A stretch of 31,066 nt of DNA from a virus (taxonomy: Duplodnaviria > Heunggongvirae > Uroviricota > Caudoviricetes), in IMG/VR virus record IMGVR_UViG_2690316153_000021. The stretch is one strand, 5' to 3'. The position numbers and the translations under genes are program-made. Below are positions 3,899 through 24,403 of this stretch, piece after piece. Position 1 is the stretch's first letter; the number at the start of each line of letters is the position of its first letter. The notes beneath the pieces were generated by a model, which worked only from the letters and a program-made list of their open reading frames with translations, made no database searches and had not been told where the DNA came from.

Positions 3899-4170
3899 GC
3901 ATTCGTATTGAAATTGGCGAACGTTATGTGGTTACCAGTGACAGCTTCCAGTTTATTCTCCACGAGAAAAAGAGAGCGGAAAGCGGTAAAAACGCCGGTC
4001 AGGAGTGGCTGGCGGTGGTTGGTTATTACCCGAAATTAAGCCAGCTCGTTTCCGGCCTGATGCATCACGATATTCTGACCGGAAGCGCAAAGTCTTTTGC
4101 TGATTTAAACGCGCAGGTTGAGCAACTCAGCAAGCGTTGTTCTGAGGCTTTTGGCTCATATGGCCGTTAA
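3895..4170 (+). CDS. Hypothetical early protein (P2 orf83 position)
   Basis: 91-aa ORF, start overlaps previous stop (ATGA); immediately upstream of and overlapping A. Confidence 0.5.
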   Translation: MSIRIEIGERYVVTSDSFQFILHEKKRAESGKNAGQEWLAVVGYYPKLSQLVSGLMHHDILTGSAKSFADLNAQVEQLSKRCSEAFGSYGR

Positions 4171-6445
4171 AGCCTCCGGGCGTTTTGTCCCTCCGTCAGC
4201 ATTTGCCGCAGGCACCGGTAAGGCGTTTACTGGTGCTTATGCATGGAACGCGCCACGCGAGGCTGTCGGGCGCGAAAGACCCCTTACACGTGACGAGATG
4301 CGTCAGGTGCAAGGTGTTTTATCCACGATTAACCGCCTGCCTTACTTTTTGCGCTCGCTGTTTACTTCACGCTATGACTACATCCGGCGCAATAAAAGTC
4401 CGGTACACGGGTTTTATTTCCTCACATCCACTTTTCAGCGTCGTTTATGGCCGCGCATTGAGCGCGTGAATCAGCGCCATGAAATGAACACCGACGCGTC
4501 GTTGCTGTTTCTGGCAGAGCGTGACCACTATGCGCGCCTGCCTGGAATGAATGACAAGGAGCTGAAAAAGTTTGCCGCCCGTATCTCATCGCAGCTTTTC
4601 ATGATGTATGAGGAACTCTGCGATGCATGGGTTGATGCGCATGGTGAAAAAGAATCGCTGTTTACGGATGAGGCGCAGGCACATCTGTATGGTCATGTTG
4701 CTGGCGCTGCACGTGCTTTCAATATTTCCCCGCTCTACTGGAAAAAATACCGTAAAGGACAGATGACCACGAGGCAGGCATATTCTGCCATTGCCCGCCT
4801 GTTTAACGATGAGTGGTGGATTAGTCAGCTTAAAGGCCAGCGTATGCGCTGGCATGAAGCGTTACTGATAGCTGTCGGGGAGGTCAATAAAGACCGTTCT
4901 CCTTATGCCAGTAAACACGCCATTCGTGATGTGCGTGCGCGCCGCCAGGCAAATCTGGAATTTCTTAAATCGTGTGACCTTGAAAACAGGGAAACCGGCG
5001 AGCGCATCGACCTTATCAGTAAGGTGATGGGCAGTATTTCTAATCCTGAAATTCGCCGGATGGAGCTGATGAACACCATTGCCGGTATTGAGCGTTACGC
5101 CGCTGCAGAGGGTGATGTGGGGATGTTTATCACGCTGACCGCGCCGTCAAAGTATCACCCGACACGTCAGGTAGGAAAAGGCGAAAGTAAAACCGTGCAG
5201 CTTAATCACGGCTGGAACGATGAGGCATTTAATCCAAAGGATGCGCAGCGTTATCTCTGCCGTATCTGGAGCCTGATGCGCACGGCATTCAAGGATAATG
5301 ATTTACAGGTCTACGGTTTGCGTGTCGTCGAGCCACACCACGACGGAACGCCGCACTGGCATATGATGCTTTTTTGTAATTCACGCCAGCGTAACCAGAT
5401 TATCGAAATCATGCGTCGCTATGCGCTCAAAGAGGATGGCGACGAAAGAGGAGCCGCGCGAAACCGTTTTCAGGCAAAACACCTTAACCGGGGCGGTGCT
5501 GCGGGATATATCGCGAAATACATTTCAAAAAACATCGACGGCTATGCACTGGATGGTCAGCTCGATAACGACACCGGCAGGCCGCTGAAAGACACTGCAG
5601 CGGCTGTTACCGCATGGGCGTCAACGTGGCGCATCCCGCAATTTAAAACGGTTGGCCTGCCGACAATGGGGGCTTACCGTGAACTACGCAAATTGCCGCG
5701 CGGCGTCAGCATTGCTGATGAGTTTGACGAGCGCGTCGAGGCTGCACGCGCCGCCGCAGACAGTGGTGATTTTGCGTTGTATATCAGCGCGCAGGGTGGG
5801 GCAAATGTCCCGCGCGATTGTCAGACTGTCAGGGTCGCCCGTAGCCCGTCGGATGACGTTAACGAGTACGAGGAAGAAGTCGAGAGAGTGGTCGGCATTT
5901 ACGCGCCGCATCTCGGCGCGCGTCATATTCATATCACCAGAACGACGGACTGGCGCATTGTTCCGAAAGTTCCGGTCGTTGAGCCTTTGACTTTAAAAAG
6001 CGGCATCGCCGCGCCTCGGAGTCCTGTCAATAACTGTGGAAAGCTCACCGGTGGTGATGCTTCGTTACCGGCTCCCACACCTTCTGAGCACGCCGCAGCA
6101 GTGCTTAATCTGGTTGATGACGGTGTTATCGAATGGAATGACCCGGAGGTCGTGAGGGCGCTCAGAAGCGCATTAAAACACGGTCTGAGAAGACCAAACC
6201 GTCAGCAAAGAAACGGAAACCCGTTAAAACCGCATGAAATAGCGCCATCGGCCAGACTGACCCGGTCAGAACGATTGCAAATTACCCGTATCCGCGTTGA
6301 CCTCGCTCAGAACGGTATCAGGCCGCAACGATGGGAGCTTGAGGCGCTGGTGCGTGGCGCGACCGTAAATTATGACGGGAAAAAATTCACGTATCCGGTC
6401 GCTGATGAGTGGCCGGGATTCTCAACAGTAATGGAGTGGACATGA
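4160..6445 (+). CDS. A: Rolling-circle replication initiator endonuclease A
   Basis: ORF track 4118..6445; ATG at 4160 (MAVKASGRFV...) gives 761 aa, the P2 gpA length. Contains the HUH-type metal-binding motif (HWHMMLF) and catalytic tyrosine motif (YIAKYISK) of rolling-circle initiators. Confidence 0.9.
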   Translation: MAVKASGRFVPPSAFAAGTGKAFTGAYAWNAPREAVGRERPLTRDEMRQVQGVLSTINRLPYFLRSLFTSRYDYIRRNKSPVHGFYFLTSTFQRRLWPRIERVNQRHEMNTDASLLFLAERDHYARLPGMNDKELKKFAARISSQLFMMYEELCDAWVDAHGEKESLFTDEAQAHLYGHVAGAARAFNISPLYWKKYRKGQMTTRQAYSAIARLFNDEWWISQLKGQRMRWHEALLIAVGEVNKDRSPYASKHAIRDVRARRQANLEFLKSCDLENRETGERIDLISKVMGSISNPEIRRMELMNTIAGIERYAAAEGDVGMFITLTAPSKYHPTRQVGKGESKTVQLNHGWNDEAFNPKDAQRYLCRIWSLMRTAFKDNDLQVYGLRVVEPHHDGTPHWHMMLFCNSRQRNQIIEIMRRYALKEDGDERGAARNRFQAKHLNRGGAAGYIAKYISKNIDGYALDGQLDNDTGRPLKDTAAAVTAWASTWRIPQFKTVGLPTMGAYRELRKLPRGVSIADEFDERVEAARAAADSGDFALYISAQGGANVPRDCQTVRVARSPSDDVNEYEEEVERVVGIYAPHLGARHIHITRTTDWRIVPKVPVVEPLTLKSGIAAPRSPVNNCGKLTGGDASLPAPTPSEHAAAVLNLVDDGVIEWNDPEVVRALRSALKHGLRRPNRQQRNGNPLKPHEIAPSARLTRSERLQITRIRVDLAQNGIRPQRWELEALVRGATVNYDGKKFTYPVADEWPGFSTVMEWT

Positions 6446-6897
6446 TGGCAAAAATTCACGAGGTAAAGCTGCACGCAAAATATTTCGACCTTGTACTGGA
6501 AGGAAAAAAACGCGCAGAGTTTCGGAAAAATGACCGTAATTATGAGCGCGGGGACACGTTGATTTTGCATGAATGGGTGCAGGGTGTGTTTACGGGGCGA
6601 AAGGTTGAAGCCCGGATAACAGATGTTACTGACCTGTCAGACTGGCTGGAAGATTATGTCTTGCTAAGTATTGAGCTGCTTAATACGGGCGCATATAAGA
6701 TTGTGAACTGGAAAGAACTTAGTGAACGTGGTCTGGTATTCAGAATTAATCATGAAATTATGCATCAGCTCGGCCTTGCTGTTATGTATGAACCAGAGAC
6801 GGGGCTGTCTGGCGGGGCAGTGGTTGCTGCGGATGGGATATGGAACTATTCAGATGAACAGGTGGAGCGTGCAAAGCAAAACGGGTGGCTTGGATAA
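6445..6897 (+). CDS. ASCH/DUF3850-like domain protein with extra C-terminal region
   Basis: Start ATG overlaps the A stop (TGATG). N-terminus (HEVKLHAKYFDLVLEGKKRAEFRKNDRNYERGDTLILHEW) matches my recollection of the DUF3850 / ASCH (PUA-like) signature; C-terminal about 70 aa unassigned. Confidence 0.5.
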   Translation: MAKIHEVKLHAKYFDLVLEGKKRAEFRKNDRNYERGDTLILHEWVQGVFTGRKVEARITDVTDLSDWLEDYVLLSIELLNTGAYKIVNWKELSERGLVFRINHEIMHQLGLAVMYEPETGLSGGAVVAADGIWNYSDEQVERAKQNGWLG

Positions 6898-7103
6898 TGC
6901 ACAGAATACCAGGCGAGATACCGCACCATAAAACTAAAAATATCAAGCTGATGGCTATTGTTCAGCGTTTACAGCGGATTATGGTCAACGAAAATCTGAC
7001 GCCCGATGAGCTGGTCGGGTGTGCCGAAATAGTTCGGGATAATTACGGGCGGCTTAACTATATCGGTCAGTCCAGAGTTGCGCCACCACCACGAAGACGA
7101 TAG
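6897..7103 (+). CDS. Small hypothetical protein (68 aa)
   Basis: ATG overlaps the stop of the preceding gene (TAATG), suggesting translational coupling; otherwise no support. Confidence 0.3.
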   Translation: MHRIPGEIPHHKTKNIKLMAIVQRLQRIMVNENLTPDELVGCAEIVRDNYGRLNYIGQSRVAPPPRRR

Positions 7104-7284
7104 AGAACGCCGCCAGTCGTGAAACTTGTTTTCAGGGCTGGCGGGGTTGAACAACGAGCGTAGCGAGGCGTTAGTTGACAGACATATTTTTACTGCGTTG
7201 GTGCCGGTTTTTGACGGTTGAAAGGAGTTAGGTTGGAGAGCTAACAACTTACAAATATTCAAAAGTAAGCATCCTGTTGCTAAC

Positions 7285-8058
7285 ATGAGGTCGATTTTTT
7301 ATGTGGATGATGCAAAAAGGATAGCTATGGATACTATAATCGCTTTTCTATCACTCGCTTTTTTCGTTGCTTTCTTCATCGGGTTAATCAAGCCATCACT
7401 GGTGCGAATGCCAAACCGCAAACGTGCAAGTGCGGTTTATCTCGGAGGAGGTTTTGTATTGAGCATAATTGGTTCAATACTCTATCCAACAGAAAAAAGC
7501 CAGCCAGTTGATAAAACTGAAACATCAACCGTTGCAGAACATAAAGTCCAAAAAACATTCGAATATGGTGAAAAAACACTCAAGGAATATCGGAACGAGT
7601 CAAAGAAAACACGACACGATATTGTGAATAGTTACATTGATTTTAAGGAAGTTCCAGCCACCGCGTCAGATGCGTTTTATGCCTGCATGAGTGAATATAC
7701 ATTTACCAAAGATGATGAGTTGAAACTCGGTGATGTTCTTGGGTGGTGCTTTAATGATTATGAAAATGACCCGAATTCACTAAACAATAAAATCAATCTT
7801 GATACATTTCAGAGTAATTTTAGTGGTTGGGATGGTTCTTATCGTCCATTGGAAAAACTAATTAAAGATAATATGAACGATGATTCATCTTATAAACATG
7901 TATCAACGGTATATCATCTGGTTTTGAATAAAGACCCGCATGCCATTGTGAAAACCACGTTTCGCGGAACTAATGCTTATGGCGGAGTGGTGAAACAGAC
8001 GATTGCTGCGCGTGTTGATATAAAAACTGGTAAGGTGATATCAATCATAGATAATTGA
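7285..8058 (+). CDS. Accessory (moron) membrane protein: two N-terminal hydrophobic helices plus about 190-aa soluble domain, unknown family
   Basis: 257-aa ORF (an alternative start at ATG 7327 has an AAGGA SD). Hydrophobic segments TIIAFLSLAFFVAFFIGLI and VYLGGGFVLSIIGSILY. Visibly AT-rich relative to the flanking phage genes. Occupies the P2 tin/old slot between A and cos. Followed by a hairpin plus T-tract. Confidence 0.6.
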   Translation: MRSIFYVDDAKRIAMDTIIAFLSLAFFVAFFIGLIKPSLVRMPNRKRASAVYLGGGFVLSIIGSILYPTEKSQPVDKTETSTVAEHKVQKTFEYGEKTLKEYRNESKKTRHDIVNSYIDFKEVPATASDAFYACMSEYTFTKDDELKLGDVLGWCFNDYENDPNSLNNKINLDTFQSNFSGWDGSYRPLEKLIKDNMNDDSSYKHVSTVYHLVLNKDPHAIVKTTFRGTNAYGGVVKQTIAARVDIKTGKVISIIDN

Positions 8059-8067
8059 TATCTTACA

Positions 8068-8107
8068 ATGCCGACGCTGAATATTTAATTGGGTGTCGGC
8101 ATTTTTT
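8068..8107 (+). terminator. Rho-independent terminator-like hairpin after the first cargo gene
   Basis: atgccgac (8068-8075) pairs with gtcggcat (8095-8102), about 19-nt loop, followed by TTTTTT (8102-8107). Confidence 0.55.
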
Positions 8108-8167
8108 GACTATTAGAGCGGCAGAACCGAGATTTGTTGCGTATGAGATTAGCACTGCGAGAATGTT

Positions 8168-8950
8168 ATGAAAATTATAAACCAACTTAAGAAGTTTGAT
8201 AAGAAAAGAACGCCAGATGATGGCCGTATTAGTTTGTTATATGAAAACGCGATTAAGTATGATATGTACTCTGTATATATTAAAGATAAAAATGATACAG
8301 AATACCTCTTTGACTGTTTGGTTGATGGGAAGATAAAGGCTTTTAAATGGGATGATGAGGAGCGTAGATTTCATATAAGTTCATGCTTGGATATTTCTGA
8401 GGTTACGCCTGATTCTTTTTTTGGTGTTTACTACTACCGTGCGCATGAGTTGCGATTTAACTCTTTAAATGATTTAACATTTTTAAGGGAGTTGTTCTTT
8501 AGAGTAAAGTCTAATTATGAAAATATAAAGTTTAGTCGTGAAAAATATATTTATCGACAGCAAAAAAAAGAAATAACTGATGTGATGTTTGTTCTCTCAA
8601 CGATTATAAGAATGTATCGTGAATGGGATGCTCAAACTGTGTTTAGTGAGTTTTCAATAATGACCGAAGTCGCTGGTAGTTTATGGGTATACCATGACGA
8701 TAAAAACAGGATGCGTAAAGAGCTTCGTTTATGCCTGAATTCTCTTGTTCAGAATGGAGATCTTGTTGAAACAAGTAGTGGATTTAGGCCAACAGGAAAG
8801 GCACTGAACACAATATCTACATTCAATAAAGATGAGGTGCGGTACAGAGAGAATTTGAGTACTCAGAAGAAAATGTTTTGGGCTACTTTTTTCGCAGCAG
8901 TCGGCGGCGTAGGAAGTATGATTGCAGCTATAATAGGGCTTCTAAAATGA
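8168..8950 (+). CDS. Accessory (moron) protein with single C-terminal transmembrane anchor, unknown family
   Basis: 260-aa ORF, strongly AT-rich; C-terminal hydrophobic stretch (MFWATFFAAVGGVGSMIAAIIGLLK) at the extreme end, i.e. tail-anchored topology; preceded by a terminator, so probably its own transcription unit. In the P2 tin/old slot. Confidence 0.6.
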   Translation: MKIINQLKKFDKKRTPDDGRISLLYENAIKYDMYSVYIKDKNDTEYLFDCLVDGKIKAFKWDDEERRFHISSCLDISEVTPDSFFGVYYYRAHELRFNSLNDLTFLRELFFRVKSNYENIKFSREKYIYRQQKKEITDVMFVLSTIIRMYREWDAQTVFSEFSIMTEVAGSLWVYHDDKNRMRKELRLCLNSLVQNGDLVETSSGFRPTGKALNTISTFNKDEVRYRENLSTQKKMFWATFFAAVGGVGSMIAAIIGLLK

Positions 8951-9110: not shown

Positions 9111-9129
9111 GGCGAGGCGGGGAAAGCAC
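9111..9129. other. cos: cos site (19-nt cohesive end sequence GGCGAGGCGGGGAAAGCAC)
   Basis: Exact string ggcgaggcggggaaagcac at 9111-9129 matches the P2 cohesive-end sequence as I recall it, and lies in the GC-rich stretch just beyond the 3' end of portal gene Q, where cos sits in P2. Confidence 0.65.
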
Positions 9130-9298: not shown

Positions 9299-10333
9299 TC
9301 AGCCGTTGTCAGTGTCCAGTGAGTAGTTTTTAAAGCGGATGACCTCCTGACCGAGCCAGCCGTTTATCTCGCGGATCCTGTCCTGTAACGGGATAAGCTC
9401 ATTGCGGACAAAGACCTTTGCCACTTTCTCAATATCACCCAGCGACCCGACGTTCTCCGGCTTGCCCCCCATCAACTGAAAGGGGATGCGGTGCGCGTCC
9501 AGCAGGTCAGCGGCGCTGGCTTTTTTGATATTAAAAAAATCGTCCTTCGTTGCCACTTCACTGAGCGGGATAATTTTAATGCCGTCGGCTTTCCCCTGTG
9601 GGGCATAGAGAAACAGATTTTTAAAGTTATTGCGGCCTTTCGACTTAACCATGTTTTCGCGAAGCATTTCGATATCGTTGCGATCCTGCACGGCATCAGT
9701 GACGTACATGATGTATCCGGCATGTGCGCCGTTTTCGTAATACTTGCGGCGGAACAGCGTGGCCGACTCATTCAGCCAGGCAGAGTTAAGGGCGCTGAGA
9801 TATTCCGGCAGGCCGTACAGCTCCTGATTAATATCCGGCTCCAGCAGGTGAAACACGGAGCCGGGCGTGAAAGGTGTCGGCTCGTTGAAGGACGGCACCC
9901 ACCAGTAAACATCCTCCTCCACCCCACGGCGGGTATATTTTGCCGGTGAGGTTTCCAGTCTGATGACCTTACCGGTAGTGCTGTAACGCTTTTCCAGAAA
10001 CGCATTACCGAACACCAGAAAATCCAGCACAAAGCGGCTGAAATCCTGCTGAGAAAGCCACGGATGCGGGATAAATGTCGAGGCCAGAATATTGCGTTTG
10101 ACGTAAATTGGTGAGCTGTGATGCACGGCAGCACGCAGGCTTTTTGCCAGACCGGTAAAGCTGACCGGTGGCTCATACCATCTGCCGTTACTGATGCACT
10201 CGACGTAATCCAGAATGTCACGGCGGTCGAGTACCGGCACCGGCTCACCAAAGGTGAATGCTTCCATTTTCGGGGCGCTGGCAGTCATTGTTTTCACCGC
10301 TGGCTGCGGTGTTTTCCCTTTTTTCTTACTCAT
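9299..10333 (-). CDS. Q: Portal protein
   Basis: 344 aa, exactly the P2 gpQ length; position and orientation (leftward, next to cos and P) as in P2. Confidence 0.9.
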   Translation of the reverse strand: MSKKKGKTPQPAVKTMTASAPKMEAFTFGEPVPVLDRRDILDYVECISNGRWYEPPVSFTGLAKSLRAAVHHSSPIYVKRNILASTFIPHPWLSQQDFSRFVLDFLVFGNAFLEKRYSTTGKVIRLETSPAKYTRRGVEEDVYWWVPSFNEPTPFTPGSVFHLLEPDINQELYGLPEYLSALNSAWLNESATLFRRKYYENGAHAGYIMYVTDAVQDRNDIEMLRENMVKSKGRNNFKNLFLYAPQGKADGIKIIPLSEVATKDDFFNIKKASAADLLDAHRIPFQLMGGKPENVGSLGDIEKVAKVFVRNELIPLQDRIREINGWLGQEVIRFKNYSLDTDNG

Positions 10334-20438: not shown

Positions 20439-21042
20439 TTCGCGCCTGCTGCCGACCGGCTCATCACCGCTTGAAGTCGCCGCCGCAAGAGCCTGTGCGG
20501 AAATTGAAAAAACGCCGGTCAGTATTCGTGAGCTGTGGAACCCGGATACCTGTCCGGCAAATCTGCTGCCGTGGCTGGCGTGGTCATTTTCGGTTGACCG
20601 CTGGGATGATAAGTGGCCGGAAGCGACAAAACGCGCTGTTATCCGCGATGCGTATTTCATTCACTGCCATAAGGGCACTATTGGTGCGATTCGCCGTGTG
20701 GTGGAGCCGCTCGGCTATCTGATTGAGGTGAGGGAGTGGTGGCAGCTCAACGAGGAGCCGGGGACGTTCCGCATCGTTGTTGGCGTGCTTGAGCAGGGTA
20801 TTACCGAGGAAATGTATCAGGAGCTGGAGCGTCTCGTTGCTGATGCAAAACCTGCAAGCCGCCATCTGACGGGACTGGCTATCAGTTTAAGTACAACCGG
20901 CAACATTTTTGTCGGTGCGGGATGCTATCACGGCGACGCCCTGACGGTTTATCCCTACACCCCGGAGGCCATTATTGTCGGAGGGGATTATTTCCCGGCC
21001 TCGGCCATTCATTTAATTGATAACCTGAGAGTAAACGCATGA
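20431..21042 (+). CDS. I: Baseplate wedge protein I
   Basis: 203 aa (P2 gpI is 176 aa); start overlaps J stop, stop overlaps H start. Confidence 0.82.
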   Translation: MSDSRLLPTGSSPLEVAAARACAEIEKTPVSIRELWNPDTCPANLLPWLAWSFSVDRWDDKWPEATKRAVIRDAYFIHCHKGTIGAIRRVVEPLGYLIEVREWWQLNEEPGTFRIVVGVLEQGITEEMYQELERLVADAKPASRHLTGLAISLSTTGNIFVGAGCYHGDALTVYPYTPEAIIVGGDYFPASAIHLIDNLRVNA

Positions 21043-22367
21043 CAGTGAAATACTACGCCATTCTGACTAATCAGGGCGCAGCACGGCTGGCTAACGCGAC
21101 GATGCTCGGCAGTAAGCTGAATCTGACGCAAATGGCCGTTGGTGATGCGAATGGTGTCTTGCCGACACCAGACCCGGCACAGATAAAACTGATTAACCAG
21201 AAACGCATCGCGCCGCTGAATCTTCTGAGTGTTGACCCGAACAACCAGAGTCAGATTATTGCGGAGCAAATCATCCCTGAGAACGAGGGCGGATTCTGGA
21301 TCCGTGAGATTGGGCTTTATGATGATGAAGGCGTACTCATTGCGGTGGCGAACTGCCCGGAAACGTACAAACCGCAGTTGCAGGAAGGCAGTGGTCGTAC
21401 CCAGACTATCCGCATGATTCTGGTTGTCACGAATACCGAAGCTATCACGCTGAAAATCGACCCGTCGGTGGTACTGGCGACCCGTAAATATGTGGATGAT
21501 GAAGTCCTGGAATTAAGGCTGTATGTGGATGACCAGATGAGCAAACACATTGCCGCACAGGACCCTCATACCCAGTATGCACAGAAACATAATCCGACAT
21601 TTACCGGAGAACCAAAAGCACCGACGCCTGCCGCAGGAAATAACACCACGCGGATTGCGACCACTGCGTTTGTACAGGCCGCTATTACCGCTCTGATTAA
21701 CGGTGCGCCTGACACGCTGGACACACTGAAAGAAATTGCCGCGGCCATTAACAATGACCCGAAATTCAGCACCACCATTAACAATGCGCTGGCAGGTAAA
21801 CAACCGCTGGACAATACGCTGACTCATTTGAGTGGAAAGGATGTTGCCGGTCTTCTCGCATACCTTGGTTTGGGAGAAGGCTCAGCATTACCTGTTGGGG
21901 TGCCTGTTCCATGGCCTTCAGCCACACCGCCAACAGGCTGGCTGAAATGCAACGGTGCGGCATTTTCTGCTGAAGAATACCCGGAACTGGCAAAGGCTTA
22001 TCCAACAAATAAATTACCTGATTTACGCGGTGAGTTTATTCGTGGATGGGATGATAGTCGTGGTATCGACAACGGGCGTGCGCTGCTTTCATCTCAAGGC
22101 CATTCACTCAGAGACCACTCACATAACCAGCAGATCTGGACAGGTTCAAATACAACATCGTCAACTATTGGTCAGGCCGGGAGTTATGCTCCGCTAGCAA
22201 CTGGAGGGGATGGGGGGATTGCCTATACTGACCGGGAGCCTCAAAGCCTACCTTCAGCAGTAAGAGCTGTCAGCACTCGTGGGGTTGCTTCTGACAATGC
22301 AGCGAATATTGGCACTGAAACCCGCCCGCGCAACATTGCATTTAACTACATCGTGAGGGCTGCATAA
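21039..22367 (+). CDS. H: Tail fibre protein H (constant N-terminal part fused to currently expressed variable C-terminus)
   Basis: 442 aa; N-terminus and the ...NALAGKQP... segment resemble P2 gpH; shorter than P2 H (669 aa). The crossover site lies in-frame at codons YLGLGE (21861-21878). Confidence 0.85.
   Translation: MTVKYYAILTNQGAARLANATMLGSKLNLTQMAVGDANGVLPTPDPAQIKLINQKRIAPLNLLSVDPNNQSQIIAEQIIPENEGGFWIREIGLYDDEGVLIAVANCPETYKPQLQEGSGRTQTIRMILVVTNTEAITLKIDPSVVLATRKYVDDEVLELRLYVDDQMSKHIAAQDPHTQYAQKHNPTFTGEPKAPTPAAGNNTTRIATTAFVQAAITALINGAPDTLDTLKEIAAAINNDPKFSTTINNALAGKQPLDNTLTHLSGKDVAGLLAYLGLGEGSALPVGVPVPWPSATPPTGWLKCNGAAFSAEEYPELAKAYPTNKLPDLRGEFIRGWDDSRGIDNGRALLSSQGHSLRDHSHNQQIWTGSNTTSSTIGQAGSYAPLATGGDGGIAYTDREPQSLPSAVRAVSTRGVASDNAANIGTETRPRNIAFNYIVRAA
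21853..21878. promoter_or_regulatory. gix/cix-like invertase crossover site (left), inside H
   Basis: ttctcgcatacc-TT-ggtttgggagaa: 26-bp imperfect palindrome with half-sites of the form TTnTCnnAAACC around a 2-bp core; its right 14 bp are the exact reverse complement of 23729-23742. Confidence 0.6.
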
Positions 22368-22969
22368 TGACACAGGCAAAATTAAACAGTGAATTTATTG
22401 CCACAGTAGCGGGTGATATTACCGTCTATAACTATGACAACACGACACGGGAATACATTTCATCATCAACAGAATATCTTGCCGTTGGCGTCGGTATCCC
22501 GGCATGTTCTTGTTTAGATGCACCAGTTACACATAAAGCTGGTTATGCAATCTGCCGTTCTGCAGATTTTAACTCATGGGAATATGTACCAGACCATCGC
22601 GGTGAAATCATCTATAGCACCGAAACAGGAGAATCGAAAGAAATCACAGCTCCGGGTGATTACCCTGAAAATACAACCACTATCGCCCCGTTAACGCCAT
22701 TCGATAAATGGGATGGTGAGAAATGGGTGACGGATACCGAGGCACAGCATAGCGCCGCACTAGACGCGGCAGAAGCAAAGCGCCAGTCGCTGATTGATGC
22801 TGCAATGGCTTCCATCAGTCTGATTCAGATGAAATTACGGGCCGGGCGGAAGCTGACGCAGGCAGAAACCACCCGACTTAACGCTGTGCTGGATTACATT
22901 GACGCGGTGGAGGCAACAGATACCAGCACCGCGCCTGATGTCATCTGGCCTGAACTGCCGGAGGCGTAG
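22367..22969 (+). CDS. G: Tail fibre assembly chaperone (Tfa) for the expressed fibre tip
   Basis: 200 aa; start overlaps H stop (TAATG); C-terminus (NAVLDYIDAVEATDTSTAPDVIWPELP) is the typical Tfa chaperone C-terminal motif. Confidence 0.8.
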   Translation: MTQAKLNSEFIATVAGDITVYNYDNTTREYISSSTEYLAVGVGIPACSCLDAPVTHKAGYAICRSADFNSWEYVPDHRGEIIYSTETGESKEITAPGDYPENTTTIAPLTPFDKWDGEKWVTDTEAQHSAALDAAEAKRQSLIDAAMASISLIQMKLRAGRKLTQAETTRLNAVLDYIDAVEATDTSTAPDVIWPELPEA

Positions 22970-23381
22970 GCCATTCAATATCTGGCGCACCGGAAGTATC
23001 GACCAGTTCCAGTGCGTCCAGATAATCCAGCCACAAATTATATTGCACCAGTTCCTCACCTTTCAGGCGACCAATCGCCGCTTTACCAGGCCATTGCTTA
23101 CTGTTTATGTATTCGTTGACCTGATTAATCAATTGCTGCTTTTTCAGTTCGGCTGCGGCAATTTGTTCCTCATGAGTTGGCGGTGGAATATCAATCCATG
23201 CAGGCATTCCGTCGATGACACCTCTGTATTTTCCTTCTGGTGCTTCCTTCATAAATTCGGCAGCAACAGTGTCGTCAATTTCGATTCCATCATCGGGCCA
23301 TTCGCCGGATTCCTGATAAGCGATTTTAAGCTCCACAGGGAAAAACGCATTTTTATCGGCACTGAAAATATATTTCTGCAT
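22941..23381 (-). CDS. Alternative tail fibre assembly chaperone (Tfa') inside the invertible segment
   Basis: 146 aa on the minus strand; C-terminus (NLWLDYLDALELVDTSGAPDIEWPTPP) is paralogous to the plus-strand Tfa motif; 3' ends of the two tfa genes converge and overlap by about 29 bp. Confidence 0.75.
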   Translation of the reverse strand: MQKYIFSADKNAFFPVELKIAYQESGEWPDDGIEIDDTVAAEFMKEAPEGKYRGVIDGMPAWIDIPPPTHEEQIAAAELKKQQLINQVNEYINSKQWPGKAAIGRLKGEELVQYNLWLDYLDALELVDTSGAPDIEWPTPPAVQAR

Positions 23382-23383
23382 TT

Positions 23384-23728
23384 CTACCGTCCTATCGAAA
23401 TATAACTGAATCTGTATTGCTGTGAGATATCACTGGTTGCCACACGCCACGCTGAATTACTGATATGTTCAAAATTTACAGACAAAACCTGCGGGGCAGG
23501 AATCGACGGGTCTGACTGAACGGCATCAGACATAACACTGACTGAAACCATCGGCTGATTAGGGAATGGTATAGGGAAGTGTCCACTGATAAAGCGGGTC
23601 GTGTTTCCTGCAAAAGTGCCAAACTGAACAATATATCCACCTGGTAGCCTGAACCATCCCGAACCAGAAGCGAATGCTCCCATATCCGGTATCTGATTAT
23701 CTCCTGTGCCCACATCCCTTTTCGCCGC
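23384..23728 (-). CDS. Silent alternative tail-fibre C-terminal cassette (Hv'), expressed only after inversion
   Basis: Minus-strand frame reads ...VGLGEAAKRDVGTGDNQ... through the right gix site, in the same codon phase as H reads YLGLGEGS through the left site, so inversion would create an in-frame H::Hv' fusion. ORF-track ORF 23384..23782 has its only ATG upstream of the site, so it has no plausible independent start. Confidence 0.6.
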   Translation of the reverse strand, partial: AAKRDVGTGDNQIPDMGAFASGSGWFRLPGGYIVQFGTFAGNTTRFISGHFPIPFPNQPMVSVSVMSDAVQSDPSIPAPQVLSVNFEHISNSAWRVATSDISQQYRFSYISIGR

Positions 23729-23754
23729 TTCTCCCAAACCAACGTTTATGAAAA
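23729..23754. promoter_or_regulatory. gix/cix-like invertase crossover site (right)
   Basis: ttctcccaaacc-AA-cgtttatgaaaa; left half-site identical to the reverse complement of the right half-site of the 21853-21878 site. Confidence 0.6.
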
Positions 23755-23809
23755 TGCAAAGATAACGGGCAAGTGGCATCATCTCCGGTTTTTATTCAGG
23801 GGGATGCTC

Positions 23810-24403
23810 ATGTTTATTGGCTATGTACGCGTATCAACAAATGACCAGAACACGGAATTGCAGCGTAACGCGCTGGAATGCGCGGGATGTGAGCGGATTT
23901 TTGAGGACAAAATCAGCGGCACGAAGTCCGACAGGCCGGGGCTGAAAAAACTGCTCAGGACATTATCGGAGGGGGATACACTGGTAGTCTGGAAGCTGGA
24001 CCGGCTGGGGCGTAGTATGCGGCATCTGGTCATTCTGGTTGAGGAACTGCGCGAACGTGGCATTAATTTTCGCAGCCTGACGGATGCTATTGATACCAGC
24101 ACGCCGATGGGGCGTTTTTTCTTTCATGTGATGGGTGCCCTGGCTGAAATGGAACGAGAACTCATTGTCGAGCGGACTCGGGCCGGGCTGGAAGCGGCCA
24201 GAGCCAAAGGTCGTATTGGTGGCAGACGTCCTAAACTCACCACGAGTGAGTGGGAGCAGGCCGGGCGTTTGCTGGCTGCAGGGGAGTCACGTCAACGCGT
24301 GGCACTGATTTTTGATATTGGTCTGTCCACGCTCTATAAAAAATTTCCCTCATCAGCGACAAAGAATAAATTGTGTCATCCCTTAGCCAACCGGGACAAA
24401 TAG
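23810..24403 (+). CDS. Serine DNA invertase, Gin/Pin/Cin/Hin family
   Basis: ORF track 23804..24403; N-terminus (M)FIGYVRVSTNDQNTELQRNAL... with catalytic-serine motif (VRVST), resolvase-type N-terminal domain and C-terminal HTH (GLSTLYKKF); immediately adjacent to the invertible segment. Start at 23804 or 23810. Confidence 0.9.
   Translation: MFIGYVRVSTNDQNTELQRNALECAGCERIFEDKISGTKSDRPGLKKLLRTLSEGDTLVVWKLDRLGRSMRHLVILVEELRERGINFRSLTDAIDTSTPMGRFFFHVMGALAEMERELIVERTRAGLEAARAKGRIGGRRPKLTTSEWEQAGRLLAAGESRQRVALIFDIGLSTLYKKFPSSATKNKLCHPLANRDK

Follow-up and report, generated by a model that had tools for sequence, protein, structure and literature searches.

A mobile, predicted tail-anchored winged-helix protein from the gpA-portal hotspot of a P2-like prophage as a candidate anti-phage factor

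Introduction

The locus between the replication gene A (gpA) and the portal gene Q of P2-like phages is a hotspot of anti-phage systems, and three of eight newly tested cargo systems from P2 hotspots provided defence (Rousset et al., 2022; PMC9122126). For P4 hotspots, six of eight randomly chosen unknown loci gave defence. P2 itself carries tin and old at this position, and Tin blocks T-even phages (P2 record annotation). Here we describe gene 2 (positions 8168-8950, + strand), the last cargo gene of the gpA-portal locus in a DNA stretch of 31,066 nucleotides (IMG/VR record IMGVR_UViG_2690316153_000021), which is analyzed here in full and referred to as the window. The window is a nearly complete P2-like prophage of Escherichia coli.

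Several small membrane proteins are known from phage defence. Cam1 and Csx23 (type III CRISPR), Cap15 (cyclic oligonucleotide-based antiphage signaling system, CBASS) and PycTM (Pycsar) are sensor-effectors of abortive infection (Abi) with a single transmembrane (TM) element, in which the TM helices are N-terminal, their assembly is the output, and the signal bound is a nucleotide second messenger that a partner enzyme produces. In design the gene 2 protein is similar, being a small protein with a predicted cytoplasmic domain and a TM helix that is encoded in mobile defence loci; the sequences were compared through the PADLOC models only. It differs from these proteins in having no partner, a C-terminal tail anchor, a predicted beta-barrel and winged-helix module, and no match in PADLOC. 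P22 SieA, T4 Imm and HK97 gp15 are small phage-encoded inner-membrane proteins that protect the lysogen by superinfection exclusion. Compared to this group, no significant match was found among the viral structures of BFVD, and the gene 2 family also occurs in integron cassettes and on plasmids. Members of the winged-helix superfamily (MarR/PadR, the kleisin winged-helix domains (WHDs) of Scc1, MukF and JetA/B, and the effector of retron Ec86) share 8-16% identity with the gene 2 protein; the WHD of the latter is neutral, scores below the helix-turn-helix (HTH) thresholds of Pfam and is fused to a tail anchor which is absent from those proteins. Like tin and old of P2, gene 2 is AT-rich lysogenic-conversion cargo in the hotspot between gpA/orf91 and cos. 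Unlike the gene 2 protein, Tin is soluble and has no hydrophobic stretch, and tin and old of P2 are encoded on the other strand and have a promoter of their own near cos.

Results

Genomic Context of Gene 2

Gene 2 is an accessory (moron) gene that stands by itself within a P2-like defence hotspot. The locus runs from gpA (4118-6445) and an orf91-type gene encoding a DUF3850/ASCH protein (6409-6897, +), via a small open reading frame (ORF) and gene 1 (7285/7327-8058, +), to gene 2, the cos core (9111-9129, +), the portal gene Q (9299-10333, -) and the terminase gene. The cos core is an exact match to a 19-nt sequence which we take to be the core of the P2 cohesive ends; it marks the right edge of the hotspot and lies 160 bp downstream of gene 2. 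In DNA comparisons the cargo region was 100% identical to that of E. coli E70, and strains IHE3034, APEC O78 and MS7163 were 98.6-98.8% identical to the window.

The ORF of gene 2 starts with ATG and encodes 260 amino acids. Its GC content is 0.347, lower than in gene 1 (0.376) and in the phage core (0.52-0.62), and the 500-bp bin with the lowest GC content of the whole window (8001-8500, 0.346) overlaps with it. A preliminary description of the window, made from the DNA letters alone, had singled out gene 2 as the most AT-rich gene and the soluble part of its product as rich in Lys, Asp, Tyr and Phe; both statements agree with the computed values (K 8.8%, D 7.3%, F 7.3%, Y 5.4%). Homologues were found in 30 clusters with 45-99% identity, all of which preserve the full length and the C-terminal helix, and we therefore consider gene 2 to be a real coding gene.

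Gene 2 is separated from gene 1 by a strong intrinsic terminator (8067-8107, +), which consists of a hairpin (8067-8103) and a T-run (8102-8107). The predicted folding energy is -21.4 kcal/mol (RNAfold; z -6.7), and none of 200 shuffled sequences was equally stable. A scan for sigma-70 promoters requiring at least four of six matches per hexamer gave no convincing promoter immediately 5' of gene 2. By eye, a candidate weak sigma-70 promoter of gene 2, absent from the output of that scan, may be discerned at 8106-8134 (+; TTGACT, 17 nt, GAGATT).

The upstream gene 1 encodes a protein of 243 amino acids when counted from M15 (7327), with two N-terminal TM helices and a C-terminal domain of about 170 amino acids for which no match was found in Pfam, NCBIfam or PADLOC. 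It belongs to the orf97 type (phrog_3403) and corresponds to system #12 ('2 TM', 210 occurrences) in the catalogue of Rousset et al. (2022; PMC9122126). Gene 1 is 75-96% conserved in P2/186-like prophages of E. coli, Enterobacter, Cronobacter and Klebsiella, and behaves as a semi-core gene at the edge of the hotspot, unlike the swappable cargo.

Architecture of the Gene 2 Protein

Hydropathy analysis (Kyte-Doolittle, 19-residue windows, threshold 1.4) showed that residues 236-260 (MFWATFFAAVGGVGSMIAAIIGLLK) are the only part of the protein exceeding a value of 1.4, as had been noted from the sequence for the last 25 or so residues; the remainder of the protein is not hydrophobic. The TM helix (8873-8947, +) is preceded by a basic QKK flank and followed by one residue only (K260), and the protein is therefore predicted to be tail-anchored with its N-terminus in the cytoplasm. 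By prediction it has one TM helix within the last approximately 30 residues and a minimal extracytoplasmic tail.

An AlphaFold2 model based on the family alignment (mean predicted local distance difference test score, pLDDT, of 86) divides the soluble part into distinct elements. Residues 30-100 (8255-8467, +) are modelled as a small, possibly Sm/SH3-like beta-barrel of six strands (approximately residues 30-97) which includes a conserved aromatic H/Y-Y-Y strand. A long basic helix follows (residues 101-134; 8468-8569, +; modelled helix 105-131), and then a winged helix or winged helix-turn-helix (residues 135-212; 8570-8803, +; modelled 139-208) of roughly neutral charge. The juxtamembrane helix, considered rigid (residues 213-235; 8804-8872, +), carries the family motif E-E-R-R-H-x6-Q, which reads D-E-V-R-Y...Q233 in the window protein, and in the model residues 210-259 make up a single unbroken helix, the end of which is the membrane segment. 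The soluble part, called unrecognizable in the preliminary description, is not featureless, as the model contains three domain elements.

The predicted winged helix can be superposed on solved WHDs and comprises a three-helix bundle and a beta-hairpin wing. Structural matches were MarR, HrcA and PadR, and the top ones include the protein-binding WHDs of Scc1, MukF and JetA/B. Among 99 family members the mean net charge is +5 for the helix at residues 101-134, +3 for the N-terminus and approximately 0 for the winged helix; for the recognition helix and the wing the net charge is likewise close to 0 across the family. Because the winged helix is nearly neutral, its presence does not imply DNA binding.

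The TM helix is retained in 123 of 132 full-length representatives. Conservation is highest in the juxtamembrane helix (1.94 bits per column) and the TM helix (1.86), compared to 1.3-1.76 for the soluble domains. Position 240 is occupied by a small residue in all members (Thr in 83%), position 247 is also always small, position 250 is polar in 95% (Gln 61%, Ser 23%), and positions 244 and 251 are mostly Ala. These five positions, which are T240, A244, G247, S250 and M251 in the window protein, share one face of the helix. Small-xxx-small and polar-residue patterns are established packing interfaces of TM helices. As the conserved pattern matches such interfaces, it indicates that the helix probably does more than anchor the protein passively and makes a specific helix-helix contact, either with further copies of itself or with a different membrane protein.

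Family Size and Prior Record

With a family profile, an exhaustive HMMER search retrieved at least 637 representatives (clustered at 50% identity) at E ≤ 1e-3, and 233 of these had E ≤ 1e-10. Almost all representatives are 250-300 amino acids long and match end to end, and the spread of the family includes Vibrio, Plesiomonas, Yersinia, Klebsiella and Burkholderia. On the basis of sequence and structure prediction, the family is a large uncharacterized group of proteobacterial tail-anchored inner-membrane proteins. The gene 2 protein itself matches phrog_7611 over its full length (E 5.1e-164; residues 1-260 on profile positions 1-260). The function annotation of that entry is 'unknown', and the gene 2 protein is annotated as 'hypothetical' in every source.

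Searches against Pfam-A and NCBIfam gave no family above the curated thresholds for the gene 2 protein, and with 99 members only sub-threshold Pfam matches were obtained (HTH_45 in two members). In PADLOC-DB v2.0.0, which holds 5027 models and does not cover systems described after 2023, the only match of the gene 2 protein was DruD (E 0.021); the 99 members gave four sporadic single matches, all with E > 1e-3. Ten distant members had no match in Pfam, NCBIfam or PADLOC. A profile search against the sequences of the PDB returned a designed TM peptide at E 2.6 and nothing else, and a Foldseek search with the whole model against the viral structures of BFVD gave no match at E ≤ 1e-3. In a tblastn search of 50,697 deposited phage genomes gene 2 was not found. 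Where the DNA of phages 9W, P22H4 and S164 matched in part, the match was due to gene 1 and other cargo, not to gene 2.

The existence of gene 2 has been published. Table S5B of Rousset et al. (2022; PMC9122126) lists system #68, labelled '1 TM', with 62 occurrences, and its sequence equals the gene 2 protein except for one residue (I3V). The catalogue entry gives the sequence, the count and the label '1 TM' alone, without fold, family or context beyond E. coli, and systems #12 and #68 are absent from the tables of tested systems in that study. A literature search covering P2 hotspots, integron defence and accession numbers yielded no characterization of the gene 2 protein. What is new here, as far as the searched literature shows, is the fold assignment, how large the family is and how widely it has spread, the conserved face of its TM helix, its occurrence in cassettes and on plasmids, and the independence of gene 2 from gene 1.

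Distribution Across Mobile Elements

Loci with close homologues of gene 2 (37 in total) were fetched from IMG/VR and GTDB. In all 37 the homologue is located between gpA and the portal gene of a P2/186-like element and is always the last gene before cos. In one hotspot the homologue (L062:6321-6758) aligned over 146 residues only and may be a disrupted copy.

Distant members, with 20-30% identity, are found in integron-type cassettes, in a prophage as a moron, and in IncF plasmid islands. The cassette homologues (20-25% identity) are single ORFs from Vibrio ordalii, Plesiomonas shigelloides and marine metagenomes. In locus L065, for example, attC-like repeats at 5901-6027 and 6836-6960 bracket the ORF at 6040-6834. 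The array stretches examined were L065:5901-6960, L018:1-12000, L014:1-11451 and L066:1-7373. The repeat families, with ends of the form AACAAAC...GGCGTTAT, have 7-12 copies in L065, L018 and L014 and four in L066. The arrays consist of small genes on the same strand split by attC-like repeats, which is the organization of gene cassettes; this holds for the distant homologues and not for the window copy. The fetched array stretches showed no integrase gene; the arrays look like chromosomal integron cassette arrays. In locus L012 the homologue is a moron of a P22-like Vibrio prophage, and the IncF plasmids which carry distant homologues in their accessory islands are from Yersinia, Klebsiella and Salmonella. 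The gene 2 family thus moves as a single gene among phage hotspots, integron cassettes and plasmid islands.

The genes next to gene 2 homologues vary, but in independent contexts they are time and again defence genes. They include a HEC-04-like AAA_15/21 ATPase with ParE, a PD-T7-4-like DUF4145 protein, and a Gabija-like pair of an OLD-TOPRIM ATPase and a UvrD helicase. In the cassette arrays HNH, Abi_C, AbiTii and ParDE genes were found, ParDE together with a MORC-type ATPase. One context combines a restriction endonuclease, Shedu and CcdAB, and another a HEPN protein, a PDC-S31-like protein and HigBA. No neighbour recurs, and therefore gene 2 has no obligate partner.

Boundary Element and Other Features of the Window

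The left edge of the variable cargo is marked by a single-copy hairpin followed by a GGTTGAACAACGAG-N3-GCGAGGCGTTAGTT box (7106-7176, +). The same element is present at L010:3386-3516, L038:5847-5985 and L046:5845-5980 and in further gpA-Q hotspots of P2/186-like phages. The hairpin is closed by an invariant AAC...GTT and followed by the invariant GGTTGAACAACGAG-N3-GCGAGGCGTTAGTT box, and conservation ends right there. The hairpin comprises 17 pairs with 93% pairing over nine loci, nine of the pairs show compensatory changes, and none of 500 shuffles was as good. In E. coli-type phages the element is positioned 5' of gene 1, and in 186-like phages between gene 1 and the gene 2 homologue. It has no match in Rfam and is unmentioned in the hotspot papers examined. 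The 3' box, GTTGAAC, agrees with GTTRRRY, the consensus of attC R', which is a resemblance only. Possible roles of the boundary element are those of a terminator or processing site, of a promoter or regulator of the cargo, and of a recombination boundary. Rfam searches of the window and of the cargo region detected no RNA family.

Outside the cargo region, the integrase gene (1-996, -) is followed by repressor and cox-like genes. There is a 37-nt overlap between the end of gene A and the orf91-type gene, whose product, with DUF3850/ASCH and DUF7415 domains, has 162 amino acids when counted from the listed GTG start. P2 Orf91 is shorter than this protein, with a coding sequence of 330 nt in NC_001895. 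The tail-fibre region (21039-24403) has an invertible-segment layout resembling the host-range switch of the Mu/P1 type, and occupies the place of the second moron site in P2. On the + strand it contains fibre gene H (21039-22367) and an assembly chaperone gene (22367-22969), and on the - strand an alternative fibre C-terminus or tip (23384-23782, Gp53-like_C) and a second chaperone gene (22941-23381, Caudo_TAP). The serine invertase is encoded at 23804-24403 (Resolvase, 7.6e-53, and HTH_7).

Discussion

We propose, with a probability of roughly 0.4, that the gene 2 protein is a stand-alone membrane-acting factor directed against phages or other mobile genetic elements. The immunity role is inferred from the context of the gene: a gene that travels alone and turns up in phage hotspots, in integron cassettes and in defence islands of plasmids is a credible anti-phage candidate. 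The location in the hotspot, the published rates of defence among tested P2 and P4 hotspot loci, the defence genes among the neighbours and the conserved TM helix speak for this reading. In the proposed mechanism, the cytoplasmic beta-barrel and winged-helix module would recognize an infection cue, either phage nucleic acid or phage protein, at the membrane. Recognition would drive the TM helices to assemble via their conserved face, and this assembly would compromise the membrane so that the infection is stopped in an Abi-like manner. The sensing step and the membrane permeabilization are speculative. More tentative than the anti-phage role as such is the proposal that the family represents a new self-contained, single-protein immune module, in which a sensor and a TM-mediated membrane lesion are combined in a protein without homology to described systems. 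The same data fit superinfection exclusion nearly as well, and the lack of any antitoxin-like partner is what would be expected of a non-toxic protein.

Non-lethal superinfection exclusion is the main competing explanation, although we regard it as unlikely. The gene 2 protein would act at the inner membrane and block genome entry or the early establishment of phage or plasmid DNA, for which the basic helix and the winged helix might bind ejected proteins or DNA, or a host inner-membrane protein used by phages might be engaged. Gene 2 is prophage-encoded, adjoins cos and has a membrane-located product, like classical lysogenic-conversion exclusion genes. The basic charge of the helix at residues 101-134 and of the N-terminus is consistent with such binding, and the conserved polar TM face could equally contact a host membrane protein. 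The protein, however, has virtually no periplasmic part and therefore should not act on adsorption or other outer steps. That the family occurs in integron cassettes and plasmid islands of several genera argues against tuning to the entry machinery of one phage, and neither the PADLOC nor the BFVD searches revealed similarity to known exclusion proteins.

It is less probable again that gene 2 has no role in immunity and encodes a membrane-tethered winged-helix regulator, for instance one which regulates genes after release by proteolysis, or another lysogenic-conversion factor that acts on host or prophage physiology such as envelope stress, fitness or virulence. The winged helix is most often the DNA-binding module of transcription factors, as in the matches MarR, HrcA and PadR, and carriers of gene 2 include the extraintestinal and avian pathogenic E. 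coli (ExPEC/APEC) strains IHE3034 and APEC O78. P2 hotspots also hold cargo that is not defensive, such as partition systems and toxins (PMC9122126), and the second P2 moron site can bear the fitness gene neaT. Against a regulator argue the near-neutral charge of the winged helix together with the protein-binding WHDs among its top structural matches, and the finding that the TM helix is better conserved than the putative DNA-binding domain. Furthermore, no conserved target locus or partner was found, and the gene moves alone among unrelated elements and hosts.

The stand-alone character of gene 2 was also weighed against a two-gene membrane system, in which the 2-TM protein of gene 1 would act together with the tail-anchored gene 2 protein. 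The two genes are adjacent and co-oriented in the window and in six E. coli genomes, both products are membrane proteins, and the pair is also present in 186-like prophages of Enterobacter, Cronobacter and Klebsiella despite a divergence of 55-60% and 75%. We nevertheless largely reject this pairing as improbable. The terminator described above separates the genes, gene 1 is present in 21 of the 37 close loci and absent from the other 16, and no gene 1 homologue was found near the distant gene 2 homologues that were fetched. Conversely, in 78 of 84 E. coli genomes unrelated cargo comes after gene 1 (loci L010 and L011 among others). In 186-like phages, moreover, the boundary hairpin stands between the two genes, and Rousset et al. 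(2022) catalogued them as separate systems. As to the unrelated cargo, L010:4458-5156 encodes a 232-amino acid protein with N-terminal TM helices and without a Pfam match, which is also found in phages 9W and P22H4, and L011:4443-5039 encodes a soluble protein of 198 amino acids without a Pfam match and adjoins the gene of a FRG-domain protein (5455-6810).

In a few relatives a homologue with 55% identity is located directly downstream of a type VI retron, which consists of HTH_VI (2.5e-31), the reverse transcriptase (RT) RT_VI (9e-106) and a 97-amino acid ORF in L053:4245-5808. This arrangement occurs in four of the 37 loci (L053, L046, L049 and L061), which belong to one E. coli P2 lineage, and the window itself has no type VI retron. 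The boundary hairpin separates the homologue from the RT gene, and retron and homologue are therefore best seen as independent modules stacked in one hotspot. In two reports, the type VI retron is described as a complete unit of small-protein toxin, HTH antitoxin and RT (bioRxiv 10.64898/2026.04.27.721009; 10.1101/2025.10.22.683967). The preliminary description, while correct in proposing a tail-anchored protein, had also considered gene 2 a possible divergent homologue of P2 Tin, but comparison to Tin (NP_046797) gave a best BLASTP E-value of 5.4 over eight residues and a hhalign probability of 0.2% with the 99-sequence profile, and the searches against Tin and known defence families with BLASTP, hhalign and PADLOC returned no significant match. 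Homology to Tin, in spite of the shared locus and the similar length of Tin (253 amino acids), is thus rejected at the level of sequence and profile, and Tin also lacks a TM helix. That gene 2 is an accessory effector of the retron, in spite of the direct linkage in those four loci, is highly improbable, as the retron is rarely linked, separated by the hairpin and reportedly complete with its own three parts.

To a specialist, another unknown gene at this position will not come as a surprise; yet gene 2 is a candidate that is well defined, widespread and easy to test. If it is not defensive, it would be a useful warning on guilt-by-association in these hotspots. If it is defensive, it would be a compact single-gene system of 260 amino acids with a combination of beta-barrel, winged helix and tail anchor that is unseen in described systems, and a family which comprises at least 637 clusters and has no Pfam entry would gain a name and a function. 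Its occurrence as integron cassette, phage moron and plasmid cargo makes the family a convenient case for studying how immune modules may shuttle among mobile elements.
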